A stretch of DNA of 47,408 bases, from the UHGV virus genome UHGV-1361589. One strand, 5' to 3'. Below are positions 531 through 47,408 of this stretch, piece by piece (the first letter of the stretch is position 1; each line of letters begins with the position of its first letter). The DNA comes from a virus. Under the pieces are notes generated by a model that made no database searches, was not told the origin of the DNA, and worked only from the letters and a program-made list of their open reading frames with translations. The translations under genes and the position numbers were made by a program.

Positions 531-561
531 AAAAACCCTCCATCAGGAGGGTTTATTTTTT
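531..561. terminator. bidirectional rho-independent terminator
   Basis: AAAAACCCTCCATCAGGAGGGTTTATTTTTT, between convergent genes. Confidence 0.65.
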
Positions 562-1469
562 AGTGCTTCAAATAGCTCTTCTGGTCTATACAGCCTTTTT
601 CTGATGGCGACGCTGTGTCGAATATCATGACCATCATCAGTAATCAGTATCGGAAGACCTGCATTCTCGGCGGCGCATACCTCGTCGAAATTATTATTAA
701 TGATGCAACGCAGTTTAGCGCGCTGTTCATCGCTAACATTGCGCACAACTTCCCACATATTTTCCGAAGACCAGCAGCACCACACATGAGCACCGGTAAG
801 CCGATGCGCGCGCCATGCGTCAAAGTAATTGGATACAAGGTATGTCCACTCTGTTTTTTCACCAATCGGGGTCACCGCGCCTCGCGTAAGTCTTCCGCGA
901 GTGTACTCATGGCTAAATCCAGCGCGAAATGACACACTTTCATCGTCAGCAATGAATGCCACATTGCACGGCGACATGGTTACAGCCATATAGAGTGGGA
1001 TTGCCACCAGTTCACCGGTTTTACCGGTTATGGTGTAGCCGCCTGCTTTTTCCATGATGGCCGCCACTTCTTCTGGAGCAAGGCAGTCCGATGCACCATT
1101 GACTTTTGGCAACTGCTTTCTAATCGCCTCAAGTTTTTCGCGTGGGTGCATGTTCAGAAATCCGGCCAGTGCCTCCATTGACTCTGGAAACGTCATTCCT
1201 GACAGCTTCATTAGCCAGGTGATTCCGCTGCCGTTTCCGCACTGGTTGCAGATGGCGCCGCCGTCACCTTTGTAGTCCAGGTTATCATCGAATCGGAACC
1301 GGTCACGACCTCCGCAACTAGGGCATGGCTGATGTTTACCATTGAAAATTCTCATGTCGACATTAACTATCGACATGATGGCAGCCTGCCAGTTTCCTAC
1401 CATTAAAGGCTCTATATCCTTCCAGTCGTATCGCATAATTTCTTCCAGTTGACTATGATGTAGATTCAT
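543..1469 (-). CDS. DNA primase (phage/plasmid type with N-terminal zinc-binding motif)
   Basis: 308 aa. It carries a CPSCGGRDRFRFDD zinc-finger motif typical of P4-alpha/TraC-like primases and a second CNQCG motif. It lies on the minus strand opposite the flanking plus-strand replication genes. Confidence 0.6.
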   Translation of the reverse strand: MNLHHSQLEEIMRYDWKDIEPLMVGNWQAAIMSIVNVDMRIFNGKHQPCPSCGGRDRFRFDDNLDYKGDGGAICNQCGNGSGITWLMKLSGMTFPESMEALAGFLNMHPREKLEAIRKQLPKVNGASDCLAPEEVAAIMEKAGGYTITGKTGELVAIPLYMAVTMSPCNVAFIADDESVSFRAGFSHEYTRGRLTRGAVTPIGEKTEWTYLVSNYFDAWRAHRLTGAHVWCCWSSENMWEVVRNVSDEQRAKLRCIINNNFDEVCAAENAGLPILITDDGHDIRHSVAIRKRLYRPEELFEALKNKPS

Positions 1470-27432: not shown

Positions 27433-28832
27433 TATTCAGGTGCCTCCATATCAAAATCTTCTTCGGCACGGTTCGGCTGGAACCCGCCGGAAATCGGAGC
27501 CGCTTTACTGGTGAGCGCATATGTTTCACGCAGTGCTTCGCCAGTCAGCGCATTAACAGCAGATTCCGGCAACTTCAGCTCGGCCATAATGGCGGCGCGC
27601 ATTGCGGTTTCTTCCTGTGCGGCATTGGCTTGCAGCTGGTCGCGCAGGGTTTTGTTTTGCGCCTCCACATCGGCCAGTTTCTGGTTGACTGCGGTCAACG
27701 ATTCCTGAACCGGTTTGAGGGCATCGGCTAATACAGCCTGTAATTCCTCGTTAGTCATTGAGATTTCCCCTTGAGTTGTTTTTACCGGTTCAAGCTCTGT
27801 CTTATAAACAGCCTTAACCCGTTCACCGACTAATTCTACCATATCCTCACGGACGATGTAGGACTGCATATAAATGGTGCCGTCAATCTCAACGCCAAAG
27901 TAATTATCATAAACGGCGACGATATAAGGCCATGAGTCGTCTGACATCTCGGCCTTGATGATATTGTGGAGCTGCGCGGTAATATCGGTGAATGACAATT
28001 GATTGCCAGTAAGGCGATTGATTGCACGCTGCCACCATTTGATTTTGTTTGCGCTTTCGTCTGGCATTGCCGATTCCTCAAGGTTAACTACAACGCGCTC
28101 AATGTCTTCTCCGTTAGCAGCAAATATACCGACACCATCAGCAGGGCCGCCAGCACCGGGAATACCAGGCGGAAGAATGGCGAGGTGGTCCCACTCCATA
28201 TTCCGGGCAATCCAGGAATATTTTTTACCCTTAGAAGTTCCTGATGCCTGCTCACGGTTGAGTAACAGGCCGGTAGATACCTGAACAGGTTCGGCATCGG
28301 CGCTGTTAACTTTTAGTCCATCAATGCGCGACAGCAATTCTTTACCTTTATCAGAGCGCTCAGCCACCACCTTATTAATATAAAGGTCTACCAGCACCTT
28401 ACTGCCGTCATGAGATGAGTTCTCAATCCATGCGCCAACGCCGAACTGATTGGCGGCTCGCGTCATGTTGGCCGACACGTATTTACCGTCAATCTTCGGG
28501 TGGTCATATGGCGCCGGTTTGCCATCAAGGCCGTGAAATGATTTTTTAATCTCCTCACCAGGGTACAGGCCGCCGTTCATGACAATATCATCCACCACCG
28601 GCACGACATTCTTGATGACATAGTGCGGTTCGCCATCAATTATTTTTTCACCGATGTTGCTGGCTGAGTTGATGGTGTACAGGATGTTAACCTGTAATTT
28701 ATTATTCATGTGCTTGAATGCCTCCACCTCAGCAAGGCGCTTTTTCGCCGCCTCTTCGGTGTCGTACTCGCCAAACTGGTGCGAGCCATCCTTAGATTTA
28801 ACGACCCACTTGTCGCCAATTTTGACAATCAT
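27432..28832 (-). CDS. prohead protease/scaffold protein (DUF2213-like N-terminal domain + C-terminal coiled-coil scaffold)
   Basis: 466 aa. The C-terminal approximately 120 aa are coiled coil ([45 protein letters not shown]). Position is upstream of the MCP. Confidence 0.5.
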
Positions 28833-29014
28833 GACCTTTCTCCGCGCTTACTTTATGCCCGGATTATAACACACCATAAATATGCACCACGAAACGGACG
28901 CAAGAAGGTAAAGCGGAGACGCGGTAAAAGCGAAAAGAGTAGCAAAGAATGATATCAGTATGATTGGCATGGCTGCTACCTCCTGAGTGCAAGGTAACAG
29001 CCACGAAAGAGAAT

Positions 29015-29359
29015 TCATTGAGGACTATTCTTATTTAACATTCCGCAGTTTACTTTTGCGCGGTTTACGGCATCCATGAATTTCCCGACAGGCATCGTTT
29101 TGCGGATTTCAGCCAGAATGGCGCCGTGTAACATTCTTTCTTCGCCGTAATAGAGCTTATCAAGTCGAGTGCGAACCAGCGCGCGGGTGCGTTTCATATG
29201 GTCTCGCGCTTTCATTGCCTTCTCTTTCCATACCTTGCCTGCATCATGATTACCGGCAAGCTGGCGCTCAATAGCCTCAATCTCAAAAGCAATCGTCATA
29301 TCAATGTCATCCAGCTCGCTGATTGTTGCTTCCATGATTTCGTTAAGTTGTAGTTTCAT
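29015..29359 (-). CDS. hypothetical protein
   Basis: 114 aa. Confidence 0.35.
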   Translation of the reverse strand: MKLQLNEIMEATISELDDIDMTIAFEIEAIERQLAGNHDAGKVWKEKAMKARDHMKRTRALVRTRLDKLYYGEERMLHGAILAEIRKTMPVGKFMDAVNRAKVNCGMLNKNSPQ

Positions 29360-32261: not shown

Positions 32262-32482
32262 TGCCAATCAAAAATCCAACGCCCCGCATCGAAATCGACA
32301 TGGTAGAGTTACACGAACCTGCCCGGCGAGATTATCACGTACCGAGACTTGCAGAACCAGCAGCCTACATCATCACCAGCAATCGTGGGCGCCGCTATCT
32401 GGCGTTTGCTGGTAGTGTTGAGCATCAGAATGCGACCATGTTTGGCTATGAAATGAAACCACTCTATGAGGATTCAAAATGA
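32261..32482 (+). CDS. hypothetical protein
   Basis: 73 aa. Confidence 0.35.
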   Translation: MPIKNPTPRIEIDMVELHEPARRDYHVPRLAEPAAYIITSNRGRRYLAFAGSVEHQNATMFGYEMKPLYEDSK

Positions 32483-41159: not shown

Positions 41160-41186
41160 AAGCCCTCCAGCGAGGGCTTTTTCTTA
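41160..41186. terminator. bidirectional rho-independent terminator
   Basis: AGCCCTCCAGCGAGGGCTTTTTCTT. Confidence 0.6.
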
Positions 41187-42608
41187 TCTCCTGCTCCTCC
41201 TAATCCATCCAGAGCCACGCTGTACGATGTGATCGCCAAGGCCATAGCGCAAACTATCTGTGGCGTGGTTGTGCTTGTCGATGATATCAGGAAGTATATT
41301 TCCCGTGAGCTTGTCCACTTTGTAGCTGTAAAGAGTAAACTCCTCAATGACAGTCTTACATCTTTCGTGAACAAAAATCCTGTCACAACCCCTGAGCCAT
41401 GTGATTCCGTCCTCAATGCTGCCCGGCCACTTTGCGCACGGATGGATATCAAATCCTGAGCGCTTTATATGGCTTATTGTTTCTGGCCTTGCGCAGTCAC
41501 CATACCATCTGTATTTTTCTGAACCCGGGAATGCCAGTCGCATAGCTTCTGGCGTATCAGTTATCTCAAGACCAACCTTTGCAAAGTCGCGGTAGATATA
41601 CAGGTTTCTTCTTCCGCCGCCCAAATCCTCGACATAAGATTCAGTTGCTGCCGTAGCATCCTGTGAGAAACCAAAGTCAATACCATAGTAAGGCCCGCCC
41701 CAATCTGGCGACGGCTCAAAGTCAAGAGTCTGCCATTTACCCCCAAGCACAGCTTCATCTGAACGCCGGTTGAATAACCCCTCATAAACCCACAGATAGC
41801 GGTCATAATCAACCGCCTTCATCTGGTTCATGTGCTGTTTAAGTTCCTCGGTAAACCAGGGGTTATGGATGTAGTTAACGTTCACAACGACAATATCATC
41901 ATCCTGATATATCCCATCAACCATCTTATCCACATACGGCTCAACAAAGTTTGTCCACGTGGGATCGGTTTCCCGATTGGGGTTAAAAACAATAATAATT
42001 TCAGAGCCAGAGGCGCGAACTGTAGGGATGAGTGTATCCCATGACACCTGACTAATGTTCTCCGACTCCTCGCAGAACACATCGGTAAGCCCAGCCATCC
42101 CTTTAATGGCCGTGATGTTGCGCCACATGCCCCGGAATACGAACTTTGACCGCGTGCCGTGGTGGGTTATCTCGCCATCGACGCACCGGTATTCCTGAGC
42201 GTGTCCCTTCCTGTTAATTTCATCGACCAGTTCGGCGTAGCTGGACTCCTTGATTGAGTTCTGAATTTCCCGGAAGCAGCCAACCCTGCAATTTCTGAAT
42301 CTTGCCTTTTCGATAAGATAGGAAACGACGTTAGCCGTTTTGCCGCTGCCCCTTCCGCCATAGAAGACCTTAAACCGGCGCGGATAAAGCAAAAGCTCCA
42401 TGCGTTCAGGGATTAGTATTGTTGGCTCTTCAGTTGTCTCTGATACGCCATCCTGAGTCATTTTAAGTCGCTTGATAACATTTGGCGTGCCATCATCAAG
42501 CAGCTTATTAACAATTCCGAAAACAGCAGAATCAGGTTTCTCTACAGCGTTTCCTATTGCTTCTTCGAGTTTATCAATAGCTACAGCAGAAAGTCTCTTC
42601 CTAGCCAT
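41184..42608 (-). CDS. terL: terminase large subunit
   Basis: 474 aa. N-terminal ATPase (VFYGGRGSGKT Walker A; CFREIQ) and a C-terminal nuclease-like region. Confidence 0.75.
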   Translation of the reverse strand: MARKRLSAVAIDKLEEAIGNAVEKPDSAVFGIVNKLLDDGTPNVIKRLKMTQDGVSETTEEPTILIPERMELLLYPRRFKVFYGGRGSGKTANVVSYLIEKARFRNCRVGCFREIQNSIKESSYAELVDEINRKGHAQEYRCVDGEITHHGTRSKFVFRGMWRNITAIKGMAGLTDVFCEESENISQVSWDTLIPTVRASGSEIIIVFNPNRETDPTWTNFVEPYVDKMVDGIYQDDDIVVVNVNYIHNPWFTEELKQHMNQMKAVDYDRYLWVYEGLFNRRSDEAVLGGKWQTLDFEPSPDWGGPYYGIDFGFSQDATAATESYVEDLGGGRRNLYIYRDFAKVGLEITDTPEAMRLAFPGSEKYRWYGDCARPETISHIKRSGFDIHPCAKWPGSIEDGITWLRGCDRIFVHERCKTVIEEFTLYSYKVDKLTGNILPDIIDKHNHATDSLRYGLGDHIVQRGSGWIRRSRR

Positions 42609-43116
42609 GGTTGTGGAACTCCTTATGCCACTTCTCTCTGGCCTCTCTCACTTTTTTCTCAGCTGCCTCTATAGTTGAGAATCTACCAAGATTTACAGCC
42701 TTTCCGTCAATCTTTGTTCTAGCCATCCATAAGTTTCTTGTCTTATCCCAACTAACGCCTTTCACTCCAGATGTATTCTTTGAGTTAAGGTTTTGATTAT
42801 AATTATTTTGACGTTGAGTTGCCTGGCGAAGATTGCAAAACCTGTTATCCAAAGTGTCTGTATTGATATGGTCAATCTGATCGTCAGGCCACTCGCCAGT
42901 CATGTACAGCCATGCCAGTCTATGCGCTCTATACCACTTCCGTCCAAAGTGGATATACAGATATGGCCTTTTACTACCAATGGATCCACACCATTTTATT
43001 GTTCCAGCTTTAGCACCAACTTTTGCAGGACCTTGCTTGTGCGGATTCCTCCAGGTGAATTCACCTGATTCGTGGTCGTAATTAATAATAAATTTAAGTT
43101 CGCTTTGAGTAATCAT
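42601..43116 (-). CDS. HNH-AP2 homing endonuclease
   Basis: HNH motif DQIDHINTDTLDNRFCNLRQATQRQN. AP2 domain SGVKGVSWDKTRNLWMARTKIDGKAVNLGRFSTIEAAEKKVREA. Start placed at MITQSELKFIINYDHESGEF with an AAAGGA RBS. Its 3' end overlaps the terL start by 8 nt. Confidence 0.75.
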   Translation of the reverse strand: MITQSELKFIINYDHESGEFTWRNPHKQGPAKVGAKAGTIKWCGSIGSKRPYLYIHFGRKWYRAHRLAWLYMTGEWPDDQIDHINTDTLDNRFCNLRQATQRQNNYNQNLNSKNTSGVKGVSWDKTRNLWMARTKIDGKAVNLGRFSTIEAAEKKVREAREKWHKEFHNHG

Positions 43117-43208
43117 TTTGATTCCTTTGTCACGGCTGTCATGAATGGATGCGGAAGGCGATGACAAGTCGCTTTTCACCTGGCCGGGCTATCCGCATAC
43201 TTATTATA

Positions 43209-43631
43209 TCACTGCGACTGCTGTTGTTCTAATAGCTTCTCCAGTCGCTCAAGGCGTTCCGCAAGCTCTGTTACTTCCGCGACATCAAGGCCGGTCTTAA
43301 TAACCTCGGCAAACATCTTACCGATGTCGGCCGGGATAATGCCAGATGCAATGCCGCGAATGACTGCGTCAATCTTCTCGACCGGGGTTCCGTCATCCGG
43401 GAAATCAACCTCAAACACAGGGGCCACGGGCTTTGGTAGGGGGCTAAATCGCACGATAAGCTCTTTCATCATTGCTGTGTCGCGTTGATTAATAGCCATA
43501 TCAACGATAGTGTCGTAAAGCGTCTCCTCGGTAAACCCTTTTCGCTCTAGCGCCTCAATAAGCAGCTTGCGTTTGTCTTTTCCGCGCTTATTTGGTGGTT
43601 GATTTTCGCTACTGAATAGTTTTTTAGCCAT
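43209..43631 (-). CDS. terS: terminase small subunit
   Basis: 140 aa. Basic N-terminus (NQPPNKRGKDKRK) with an HTH-like segment and a C-terminal coiled coil (LERLEKLLEQQQ). Position upstream of terL. Confidence 0.5.
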   Translation of the reverse strand: MAKKLFSSENQPPNKRGKDKRKLLIEALERKGFTEETLYDTIVDMAINQRDTAMMKELIVRFSPLPKPVAPVFEVDFPDDGTPVEKIDAVIRGIASGIIPADIGKMFAEVIKTGLDVAEVTELAERLERLEKLLEQQQSQ

Positions 43632-45148: not shown

Positions 45149-45360
45149 TTCTGCACCTCAAATAATCCATGAAGGCCATCAAGTCTACATTGAAAGATTG
45201 CCTCACCGTCGTCGCTTATGATTTCAAAACCGATGTCGCCGCGGATGTTGCCAAATTTTCCGTTATCACCGTCACCTGCGCTAACTTCATAGTTTTTACC
45301 CTTGGTAAGGTATTTGTGTTGCTTTGCGTCAACGCACTTCAGCACATCGCCTCTTTTCAT
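45145..45360 (-). CDS. hypothetical small protein (first gene of the minus-strand unit)
   Basis: 71 aa. Confidence 0.35.
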   Translation of the reverse strand: MKRGDVLKCVDAKQHKYLTKGKNYEVSAGDGDNGKFGNIRGDIGFEIISDDGEAIFQCRLDGLHGLFEVQK

Positions 45361-45384
45361 TCCTCATCACCTCTTTGTTGTTGG

Positions 45385-45423
45385 TGTGGTAACTATACGA
45401 TGGCGCTCAATCTACGTCAATAT
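45385..45423 (-). promoter_or_regulatory. strong sigma70-like promoter TTGACG-17-TATAGT on the minus strand
   Basis: Reverse complement reads ATTGACGTAGATTGAGCGCCATCGTATAGT, upstream of the gene starting at 45360. Confidence 0.55.
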
Positions 45424-45469
45424 GATGCTGAAAATAAATCCGCCTGGGGTAAAATTTACCCCTGTGGGT

Positions 45470-45780
45470 AAGGTGCTGGGGCAGGTTAATTGCCCCAGAT
45501 TTTTCTCGGTAAGTTAATGTTAATATTGTAATTTAACAATTTAGGGGCAGCAGGGTATGTTTTCACTCATATCCCCTTATATATAACCAATATAATTCAT
45601 TTGTTAATTTATTGTTAAAATAAAATCTATAATATGAATAATAATATACCCAATTAACCCAACTACTACTATTATTATTATATTACATACACTTATAGAG
45701 AAAAAATTTGGGGCAACCAGGGTGCCCCAGCGCTGCCCCAGATGCCCCTAATACGCCGCGTTGAGTGGTGTTGATTTTTG
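45470..45780. repeat. AT-rich intergenic region with two GGGGCA/TGCCCC hairpins and about 7 iteron-like copies (putative origin/pac region/divergent promoter hub)
   Basis: CTGGGGCA-GGTTAAT-TGCCCCAG hairpin at about 45475-45497. TGGGGCA-ACCAGGG-TGCCCCA at about 45716-45736. Inverted GGGGCAGC (45542) and GCTGCCCC (45739). They flank an AT-rich core of about 200 bp with ATAATA and ACTACTACTATTATTATTAT repeats. Confidence 0.5.
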
Positions 45781-45828
45781 GGGAGTTTGGTGGTATGTTT
45801 TAGGGAACAAAAGACGCGGGGGTTTGAT

Positions 45829-46101
45829 ATGAGTAACCATGGAATTTTATTAAAGCGAAAAATGAATGATAAAGGACGTGGAGCAAGGTGGGTTGCTTCA
45901 CCAAAATCAACGACTGGATACTATGGTGTTGATTTTCACAAGGCATCAAAAAAGTTCCGCGCCAGAGTGATGGTTTTGAAGAAAAGATATGATTTGGGAA
46001 TGTTCGATACGGCAGAAGAGGCAAACGCAGCCGTTCTTAAAGCTAAGCAGTGGCTATCAGAAAACCCACACGAATCATTTGCAACCGAGTATGAGGTTTA
46101 A
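45829..46101 (+). CDS. stand-alone AP2-domain DNA-binding protein
   Basis: Start placed at MSNHGILL. TTGYYGVDFHKASKKFRARVMVLKKRYDLGMFDTAEEANAAVLKAK is an AP2/ERF-type domain. No HNH motif. Confidence 0.5.
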   Translation: MSNHGILLKRKMNDKGRGARWVASPKSTTGYYGVDFHKASKKFRARVMVLKKRYDLGMFDTAEEANAAVLKAKQWLSENPHESFATEYEV

Positions 46102-47408
46102 ATGATTACAGCACAGGAAATCTTCAACCAGGCAAGAGAAGCGCACACCTCTGCGGCGCGCGTAGCCATTCATCATGGCATGACACCAAGCCATAACATG
46201 TGGCCGGAAATTAAGGAAGGGCAGGAGAAGGATGTAACATACTCAGAGATAGAGCTTACCAGCGACAACAGGAAAGACCTGATAACGCGCTACTCAGTTG
46301 CAGCAGCGAGGGCTGTGCAATTCCCAGTTAGCACGTCATTCATGCACCTGCTTGGCTGCGTAGCCAGTGCCATGACGCGAAATTTTAGCGTTGAATACTA
46401 CGGTTCTGAATTGCCTGTTTCCTTGTATGTGGTGACGTCGCAGCCTCCATCAGCTGGCAAGACAGCTATCAACTCAATGCACATGAACCCGATAAAAATT
46501 GAGTATGATAACCTGTCAAAAAAGATGGAGAAGGAAATTGTAAAGATAAACATTCGCATTGAAGATCTGATGAAGGCTTACAAGGAAGCGACGAATCAGA
46601 ACGCGAAGGCCATCATTGGAGATGACATTGCTAAAGAGAAGGAAAAGCTGGAAAATCTTTACACCATCACCTACCCGTTAACCGATGCAACACCAGAAGC
46701 GGTGCAGCACCAGGCAATTCATGAGGGTGGTTTTTTCAACCTGATAAGTGATGAGGCAAGCGTTTTAAATACCTGTCTTGGCCTTTCGTATGGCAAGGAT
46801 GGAGGAAAGTCTAACGCCGAAGTTATCCTTAAAGGCTGGGACGGCGGATTTGTTGGCTCAGCTCGCGTTGGTCGTGGTGTTTCATCTGGCTATGTGCTTG
46901 GTAACATAAGCGTCATTGCACAGGATGAAAGTATTGATGCCATTCTTTCTGCTGGCGACAGGGGTAATGGATTGTCTGAGCGATTCCTTATGCTTCGTGA
47001 GCAGTCGATGCTTGGTTATCGTGAGCACTGGGATGTTGAAAATGATTGCCCGGTAAGCAAACCAATGCCGCAAGAATTAAAAGCTGAATATGCCAGATTT
47101 GTGCATAACCTTGTGGCTTCTGAGAAGGTTGTTTTCTCTCTCGCTAAAGAATCTCAGCGCATGATTGGACTTTTGCGAAACCAGTGGGAAAAGAATTTTC
47201 TTCCCGGTGGCAAATGGGATCACGTTTTGCTTCGTGGCGCCATGGGTAAGGCTGATAAACAGATAATCAGGCTTTCGGCAATATTCCATGCCGCTGAAAA
47301 CTGGTGCGATGGAGGTCGTCGCTCAAAAATTATTGGTGAGGAGCATATAAGCCGCGCCATAAGCGTTTATGATGCACTAACAAAAACATTTACCGATGCC
47401 GTTGAGTC
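46102..47408 (+). CDS. P-loop NTPase (putative replication ATPase/helicase, DUF3987-like), 3'-truncated by the window edge
   Basis: Hand-translated open frame of 435 codons with no stop. Walker A SQPPSAGKTA and Walker B-like FFNLISDEAS. It is not in the ORF track, presumably because it lacks a stop codon. Confidence 0.45.
   Translation, partial: MITAQEIFNQAREAHTSAARVAIHHGMTPSHNMWPEIKEGQEKDVTYSEIELTSDNRKDLITRYSVAAARAVQFPVSTSFMHLLGCVASAMTRNFSVEYYGSELPVSLYVVTSQPPSAGKTAINSMHMNPIKIEYDNLSKKMEKEIVKINIRIEDLMKAYKEATNQNAKAIIGDDIAKEKEKLENLYTITYPLTDATPEAVQHQAIHEGGFFNLISDEASVLNTCLGLSYGKDGGKSNAEVILKGWDGGFVGSARVGRGVSSGYVLGNISVIAQDESIDAILSAGDRGNGLSERFLMLREQSMLGYREHWDVENDCPVSKPMPQELKAEYARFVHNLVASEKVVFSLAKESQRMIGLLRNQWEKNFLPGGKWDHVLLRGAMGKADKQIIRLSAIFHAAENWCDGGRRSKIIGEEHISRAISVYDALTKTFTDAVE

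Follow-up and report, generated by a model that had tools for sequence, protein, structure and literature searches.

A repeat-flanked AT core beside a DUF3987 helicase gene as a candidate replication origin in siphophages of Klebsiella, Salmonella and Escherichia

The replication origin of satellite phage P4 has short repeats near an AT-rich stretch that are bound by the C-terminal winged helix of the alpha protein, and replication from it is independent of DnaA and relies on the host polymerase. In the staphylococcal pathogenicity islands (SaPIs), the origin consists of two sets of repeats around an AT-rich region beside the gene for the Rep helicase-initiator, and the repeats are specific for the Rep allele. 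Repeat clusters around a central region are also present in the pac sites of phages SPP1 and P1, which are located in or beside the terminase genes and serve as binding sites for the small terminase. Here we describe a block of repeats and AT-rich DNA at positions 45445-45749 of the 47,408-bp sequence UHGV-1361589 (the window), a complete, circularly permuted siphophage genome that is opened within its helicase gene and whose closest relatives are the Klebsiella phages RCIP0103, RCIP0071 and KlebP_265. We propose with moderate confidence, from comparison of sequences, that this block is a repeat-plus-AT-core replication origin specific to the neighbouring helicase, which resembles minichromosome maintenance (MCM) proteins and would be its most likely binder. 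The block probably also affects the two divergent promoters that flank it.

The non-coding gap between the two divergent operons is 469 bp long (45361-45828) and densely packed. Its features are as follows.

45392-45420, minus strand: P_L, the sigma-70-type promoter that drives the leftward operon (small genes followed by terS and terL), with TTGACG at 45420-45415, a 17-bp spacer and TATAGT at 45397-45392, from a promoter scan.
45445-45498, no strand: left repeat cluster, comprising TGGGGTA at 45445 (plus), TTACCCC at 45456 (minus), TGGGTAA at 45465 (plus) and the left palindrome.
45476-45498, no strand: left palindrome (hairpin 1), CTGGGGCA-GGTTAAT-TGCCCCAG, with a DNA fold of -9.0 kcal/mol and z of -3.7.
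45499-45569, no strand: left AT arm, with a T-run at 45499-45504 and the internal motifs GGGGCAGC at 45544-51 and GGGTAT at 45553-58.
45571-81 (part of 45570-45586), no strand: conserved box ATCCCCTTATA, a reverse-oriented motif copy at the edge of the core.
45600-45699, no strand: AT core, the presumed unwinding element, recognized by conservation and low duplex stability.
45627-47: core element CTATAATATGAATAATAATAT, within the AT core.
45648-62: core element ACCCAATTAACCCAA, within the AT core.
45678-89: core element TTATATTACATA, within the AT core.
45708-45749, no strand: right repeat cluster, comprising the right palindrome followed by TGCCCCAG at 45734 and TGCCCC at 45743, 11 and 9 bp from start to start.
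45708-45730, no strand: right palindrome (hairpin 2), TTGGGGCA-N7-TGCCCCAG, which contains TGGGGCA-ACCAGGG-TGCCCCA at 45709-45729 and has a fold of -8.1 kcal/mol.
45771-45799, plus strand: P_R, the sigma-70-type promoter of the rightward replication operon, with TTGATT at 45771-76, a 17-bp spacer and TATGTT at 45794-99, read from the sequence.

The block as a whole has dyad symmetry: most motifs on each side face the core, and the innermost copy of each palindrome faces outward. In the window, a T-run lies on the inner, core-facing side of each palindrome, and degenerate copies of the motif are also present at 45445, 45456, 45465, 45553, 45571 and 45648-62. An earlier note on this DNA had pointed out the first hairpin, additional motif copies (GGGGCAGC at 45544-51, TGCCCC at 45734-39 and 45743-48), direct trinucleotide repeats (AATAATAATA at 45637-46 and ACTACTACTATTATTATTAT at 45662-81, both in the core) and a leftward promoter flanking the block, and all of these are present. 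The second hairpin is likewise real but had been placed about 7 bp away, at 45716-45736. An AT content above 85% between the hairpins had also been claimed; the measured value is 77.6% (45499-45708), and the maximum is 82.6% over 45580-45700 (121 bp). In the left cluster, the T-variant of the repeat forms a third small palindrome, GGGGTAA-AAT-TTACCCC (45446-45462), just inside P_L, which is palindromic in the Klebsiella group only; the equivalents of the left cluster in Vi II-E1 are GTGGGGTA, GTGGGGCA and GTGGGGCA, spaced 20 and 12 bp apart.

The clustering of the repeats greatly exceeds chance. A stretch of 264 bp holds five of the seven TGGGGCA sites in the window, and a stretch of 316 bp holds nine of the 36 GGGG[ACT]A sites, where about 0.24 would be expected by proportion; no second repeat cluster was found elsewhere in the window. 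Spacings between repeats are 9-12 bp, with the outer repeats 10-12 bp apart. The stretch between the hairpins is by a wide margin the most AT-rich 200 bp of the window, at 78.5% compared with 68% for the runner-up, and the least stable 100 bp of the genome start at 45589, with a duplex stability of -99.7 kcal/mol against a mean of -139.3 and a standard deviation of 7.5 (5 standard deviations below the mean). The block therefore has the clustered, regularly spaced repeats and the adjoining region of low stability that are expected of an iteron-type origin. It also lies next to a candidate initiator gene and has repeats that are type-specific, a feature that is confounded by linkage. Within 45361-45830 there is neither an exact DnaA box (TTWTNCACA) nor a GATC, both of which an oriC-like, DnaA-dependent origin would be expected to have, and the intergenic region has no exact site for integration host factor, a combination that fits an initiator specified by the phage. 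A search of the AT core for open reading frames gave none longer than 26 aa, with none of 20 aa or more lying inside it, and a search for the block in E. coli genomes gave no match.

In the block region, the window shares 96-99% identity with the Klebsiella phages RCIP0103, RCIP0071, KlebP_265 and DP01 and about 70-75% with phages of Salmonella, Shigella and Escherichia, among them Vi II-E1, DS8, IME207 and Akira. The earlier note had made its reading depend on the presence of the repeats in related genomes, and the block is conserved in every relative examined. For a closer comparison, we used 27 loci from IMG/VR and GenBank that carry the same helicase at 86-100% identity; their intergenic regions represent 23 distinct variants, to which all variant counts refer. 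Both palindromes are present in 23/23 variants, always as TGGGG[C/A]A, 6-7 nt and T[G/T]CCCCA. The mean pairwise identity of the AT core is 88.5% over 45600-63 and 89% over 45678-99, as compared with 84.5% for the helicase coding DNA, 58% for the left AT arm, which is the least conserved part of the block, and 46% for the P_R region. The box ATCCCCTTATA has a mean pairwise identity of 87%, with 10 of 18 columns invariant, and the 21-mer CTATAATATGAATAATAATAT is identical in all variants but one (22/23) and, within IMG/VR, is confined to this phage family. The two motifs downstream of the right palindrome keep a similar spacing despite degenerate sequences, for example TTAACCCA and TTACCCC.

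The spacing of these elements is conserved in a manner that suggests concerted binding. The distance from the plus-strand TATAAT of the core to the centre of the right palindrome is 91.5 bp in 23/23 variants. The centre-to-centre distance of the palindromes is 231-232 bp in 15 variants and 222-222.5 bp in the other 8, so that the two length classes differ by one helical turn. The sole length variation between the palindromes is a 9-10 bp insertion or deletion in the left AT arm (seen when loci L007, L010, L014, L015, L018, L022, L027 and L030 are compared with the window), and the right half is constant in length. Helical phase held over more than 200 bp suggests that proteins bound at the two palindromes act together.

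Each palindrome has a GC-rich stem and a T-run on its inward-reading strand, and a scan calls both of them terminator-like. One reading is thus that they act as intrinsic terminators or as stem-loops in RNA, keeping incoming transcription out of the AT block or forming the end of a small RNA. However, the flanking operons diverge, so that neither hairpin has a gene reading into it. In 8/23 variants there is no T-run behind the left palindrome, and the A-run before the right palindrome is weak in the Salmonella group. At the fifth stem base, pairing on the left occurs in 14/23 variants where 13.8 are expected, which is chance; on the right it is above chance, at 19/23 where 11.6 are expected, although covariation at this base would be compatible with a hairpin and with a palindromic binding site alike. 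The motif also occurs in single copies outside the hairpins, and a scan of 45200-46000 against Rfam 15 at a permissive threshold gave no significant match (the best scored 27 bits, with E = 0.25, where the gathering score is 60). We regard a terminator or RNA stem-loop function as very improbable. Because the T-runs are not conserved, the left pairing is at chance and single copies stand outside the stems, the palindromes are probably binding sites in duplex DNA, and the emphasis that had been placed on hairpins gives way to palindromic duplex sites.

More distant relatives have a similar arrangement with different repeats. In Pectobacterium phage Taid, the helicase of which is 50% identical to that of the window, a GTGGGG...CCCCAC palindrome is followed by two phased CCCAC motifs. 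T1, JeanPiccard and TLS have oppositely oriented repeats (CGATTAACAC, GGTATACAC and CGTGAAC) around an AT block in the equivalent divergent region, and the AT block carries (AAT)n in JeanPiccard and TLS. The helicases of T1 and JeanPiccard are about 36-38% identical to that of the window; TLS was left out of the helicase comparison. The equivalent regions are as follows.

T1 (L039): 48675-48836 and 1-538.
JeanPiccard (L035): 286-992.
TLS (L067): 49708-49902 and 1-588.

In T1 and T1-like phages, as in the window, this region lies between the helicase operon and a small-gene operon that leads to terS. The T1-like phages differ from the window in the sequences of the repeats and in that a pac end has been assigned to the region in T1. 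The published genome papers on T1-like phages that we consulted report neither an origin nor repeats in the divergent region, and those on TLS and SU57 state that no origin was found.

The genes that bear on the identity of the binding protein are listed below.

46102-47408, plus strand: N-terminal 435 codons plus 2 nt of the DUF3987-family replicative helicase, from Pfam, PHROG and an AlphaFold model.
1-244 (coding 2-244), plus strand: C-terminal 81 residues of the same helicase; the translation matches the C terminus of the RCIP0071 helicase.
543-1469, minus strand: DNA primase with a zinc ribbon of the primase-helicase type, in the same replication module, from a Pfam Zn_Ribbon_Prim match on the RCIP0071 orthologue.
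45829-46101, plus strand: small AP2-domain gene of 90 aa, with a Pfam AP2 match (1.2e-5) that falls short of the curated cut-off; its PHROG matches are to AP2 portions of HNH endonucleases.
43209-43631: terS, small terminase (TerS).
41184-42608: terL, large terminase (TerL).

Phages in which these genes occur in other combinations show what the repeat type follows. (i) The window has TerS type A, the DUF3987 helicase and GGGG repeats. (ii) KlebP_265 has TerS type B, which is 53% identical to that of the window, with a helicase that is 99% identical and a block that is 96.8% identical. The divergence between the two TerS proteins, judged by eye, is concentrated N-terminally, and the C-terminal half is conserved. 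(iii) Salmonella phage LPST10 has TerS type A (88% identical to that of the window) but an unrelated helicase and TTATC[C/A] repeats. (iv) Seszw_1 has TerS type B (96% identical to that of KlebP_265), a helicase of the LPST10 type and TTATCC repeats. The helicase of LPST10 and Seszw_1 occupies the same genomic position and has no detectable similarity to the DUF3987 helicase (BLASTP E = 1.2; no Pfam DUF3987 match), and what the intergenic regions of the window, LPST10 and Seszw_1 have in common is limited to P_L and a short segment of the core. The primase, 60% identical between the window and Seszw_1, remains homologous across the helicase switch. On these comparisons the repeat type appears to follow the replicative helicase and nothing else that was tested. 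TerL of the window is 60% identical to that of KlebP_265 and 90% identical to that of Seszw_1, and phages that share the block differ in the make-up of their packaging module, which is mosaic.

Independent assortment of the repeats and TerS bears directly on the second half of the suggestion in the earlier note, which was an origin and/or a packaging site; comparison supports the origin and disfavours the pac site. In a pac site of this kind, the small terminase would recognize the flanking repeats, with the initial headful cut falling in or near the AT core. The arrangement of repeats around a central region does resemble the pac sites of SPP1 and P1, and STGO-35-1 has been reported to package by a pac-type headful mechanism, at a site whose position was not stated. 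The T1 record starts at the head of a 2.8-kb terminal repeat, about 170 bp from the AT block, and the pac site of T1-like phages has been placed in the equivalent intergenic region (PMC7718038), so that this reading keeps some weight. However, loci that have the core 21-mer and include terS carry at least four TerS types, the TerS type of the window occurs with other repeats in LPST10, and terS is 1.7 kb away from the block. PhageTerm was reported to detect no termini in KlebP_265. We therefore consider it improbable that the block is a pac site.

In several GenBank relatives the record is opened or broken within the AT core, which could be taken in favour of a packaging cut, but the break points vary from record to record and look like assembly breaks. 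Records that start or end in the AT core are MT682064 (KpV2811), OP481875 (ZC2), MZ440881 (ZCKP8), OP373729 (ZCKp20p), MK599416 (Akira) and PQ008975 (Taid). The KpV2811 record lacks about 40 bp of the core, and the ZC2 record has a 17-bp overlap of its ends. The breaks probably reflect assembly failure in low-complexity AT DNA or the choice of start point, and the records of these six relatives may be slightly incomplete at the AT core.

The helicase matches Pfam DUF3987 (PF13148) at 2.3e-35 and phrog_2373, annotated as DNA helicase, at 1e-194. Its AlphaFold model has a mean predicted local distance difference test score (pLDDT) of 89, and all 50 PDB fold matches listed for it are MCM proteins; the best has E = 6e-5 and a template modelling (TM) score of about 0.35, so that the likeness, as judged from the model, is a remote, multi-domain resemblance. 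A sequence search of the PDB with the helicase gave no match, and a search on plasmids gave a single, uninformative hit. In the model, residues 442-512 have the order H-E-H-H-E-E (H, helix; E, strand), which is winged-helix-like, making the C-terminal 81 residues a candidate repeat-binding domain. When this domain was modelled alone from a single sequence the result was poor (pLDDT 54), and that model was not used for a fold search. Assignment to the DUF3987/MCM-like helicases of superfamily 6 thus draws on the Pfam match, the MCM-like fold and the winged-helix-like C-terminal pattern in the model. MCM helicases unwind DNA 3' to 5'. Proteins of the DUF3987 family were proposed to be replicative helicases by Kazlauskas et al., and helicase activity has been demonstrated for one member, with unwinding reported to be 5' to 3' (PMC11724360).

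The earlier note had named rightward AP2 and P-loop ATPase genes as flanking the block. The AP2 gene is present at 45829-46101, and the ATPase proves to be the DUF3987 helicase, which begins at 46102. Either of these products had been proposed for gel-shift tests on the repeats. Between the block and the helicase is a slot occupied by the AP2 gene or by one of two small genes unrelated to it, and the repeats are the same in each case; these unrelated replacements count against the AP2 protein as the binder. The alternative slot genes, in L007 (2262-2501) and L016 (2268-2501), encode a protein of about 75 aa starting (V)YLDKYGKKNAALS and one of about 70 aa with VRD-V-MKVDE. The first gene of the rightward operon is thus a swappable cassette. 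The slot gene of Vi II-E1 is flagged as a pseudogene in its record, but the open reading frame is intact in the IMG/VR copy and the flag was not used as evidence. A separate HNH endonuclease gene with an AP2 domain lies between terS and terL (42601-43179, minus strand), a typical homing-endonuclease insertion that is distinct from the AP2-only gene at 45829-46101.

In the mechanism that we favour for a replication origin at this site, a phage-encoded initiator would bind both 21-bp palindromes as well as the GGGG[C/A/T]A repeats that flank the core in helical phase. The best candidate for the initiator is the DUF3987 MCM-like helicase, encoded 350 bp downstream, which may bind through its C-terminal winged-helix domain. 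Two bound complexes, 22 (or 21) helical turns apart and on the same face of the DNA, would jointly open the AT core (45600-45699) or load onto it; the separate phage primase would then prime synthesis and host DNA polymerase III would copy the strands. KlebP_265 has been reported to encode a primase and two helicases and to lack a DNA or RNA polymerase gene. We infer both the role of the helicase as binder and the start of replication at the block. A more specific version is that the helicase is itself the origin-recognition protein, its winged helix reading the palindromes while two facing rings assemble across the core in the absence of a loader; this we put forward only tentatively, as a possibility short of probable.

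The core contains a facing pair of TATAAT hexamers, separated by about 50 bp, at 45628-33 (plus) and 45682-77 (minus). The plus-strand hexamer is invariant in the 23 variants and the minus-strand hexamer lies within a nearly invariant block. These could be convergent promoters, for activation of the origin by transcription or for primer RNA, or merely a conserved site for a protein. Outside the core, the -35 hexamer and 17-bp spacing of P_L are retained in both the Klebsiella and the Salmonella groups, and the variants inspected have a P_R-like pair of -35 and -10 elements, spaced by 16-17 bp, regardless of the gene that follows. The sequence (A/T)TACATA(T/C)ACTTA(G/T) adjoins the right-hand repeats on their left (45684-45697 in the window, about 32360-32375 on the minus strand of L064 and about 4685-4700 in L066); it occurs with either helicase type and may be a host-factor site or a promoter element.

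These promoter-like features raise the alternative that the block is a centre of transcription control only, with operators or activator sites for a looping phage regulator of P_L, P_R and the core promoters, and that replication starts elsewhere. Palindromes of 21 bp are typical of dimeric regulators, the two palindromes keep helical phase at 232 or 222 bp, the outermost repeats are centred near -62 relative to each of the conserved promoters and promoter-like sites are enriched (7 found, 2.6 expected). The same facts that suggest an origin would therefore fit operator or activator sites of the helicase operon, and this is one of several points that weigh against replication starting here. 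A core that is conserved in sequence and has facing TATAATs resembles promoters or a specific protein site more than a plain unwinding element, and part of it, TACATATACTTAG, is also found in phages with the other helicase and so does not follow the helicase. The repeats adjoin the helicase gene, and their joint replacement could reflect linkage alone. GC skew turns at the block, but gene orientation turns there too, so that skew is uninformative. The placement of the T1-like pac site described above belongs with these points.

Against control of transcription as the sole function, no regulator gene follows the repeat type, the helicase being the only protein found to switch with the repeats, and the neighbours of the helicase are variable or, in the viable mutant seszw_280L, deleted. 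Nowhere in the genome is the duplex less stable than in the core, which adjoins the replication module. Regulation is also compatible with an origin, as initiators often regulate their own promoters. Taken together, a role confined to transcription, the strongest of the rival readings, appears rather unlikely, and we retain the origin as the preferred reading. The smallest viable reduced mutant, seszw_280L (L065), keeps the equivalent block and helicase (28358-29039, corresponding to L064 32191-32870). It lacks small genes on both sides of the block and two genes after the helicase; the deletions were targeted to genes, so that retention of the block gives weak support.

An origin at 45445-45749 would be an element of a familiar kind, although no origin is annotated here in the GenBank records of this phage group that we examined and the papers on relatives that we consulted describe none. 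The block gives a large set of siphophages of Klebsiella, Salmonella and Escherichia, which are under development for therapy and genome engineering, a concrete candidate origin; designs for genome minimization or rebooting should retain these 300 bp as a cis-acting element. Within the group, the replication module (repeats plus helicase) and the packaging module appear to be exchanged independently. The comparison also points to a matching element in T1-like phages; if the proposal is correct, coliphage T1 and its many relatives would have their origin at a site of this design built from other repeats. It would also provide a bacterial-virus counterpart of MCM or large-T-antigen double-hexamer origins, and a simple bacterial system in which to study how an MCM-like helicase finds and opens duplex DNA.

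The locus has partial counterparts in several known systems. Satellite phage P4 is like the window in its repeats and AT stretch, in the winged-helix helicase (a candidate here) and in independence of DnaA and synthesis by the host polymerase (both proposed here). However, P4 alpha is a fused primase-helicase of another superfamily, whereas the window has a separate primase and an MCM-like DUF3987 helicase, and P4 needs a second site, crr, whereas the window has no second repeat cluster. The pac sites of SPP1 and P1 differ from the window, where the repeats assort independently of the small terminase. In phage lambda, the origin has four repeats, bound by O, and an AT-rich region, and the replicon module is exchanged as a unit, as it is in the group of the window; the lambda origin is inside the O gene and recruits host DnaB via P, whereas the element described here is intergenic and is associated with a helicase and primase of its own. 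The core origin of SV40 and the polyomaviruses has dyad-symmetric sites beside an AT tract, as in the window, and its large T antigen is both helicase and origin binder and assembles head-to-head. It is 64 bp long, compared with about 300 bp for the block, and a double hexamer in the phage is pure conjecture. MCM proteins form double hexamers on duplex DNA, and the helicase next to the block has an MCM-like fold, but the direction of unwinding reported for the DUF3987 member is opposite to that of MCM. The SaPI origins differ from the window in helicase family, host and repeat sequences, and each side of the window block consists of a palindrome with phased single sites. They nevertheless share with it the same layout, in which repeats, AT-rich DNA and repeats lie in succession beside a helicase gene.

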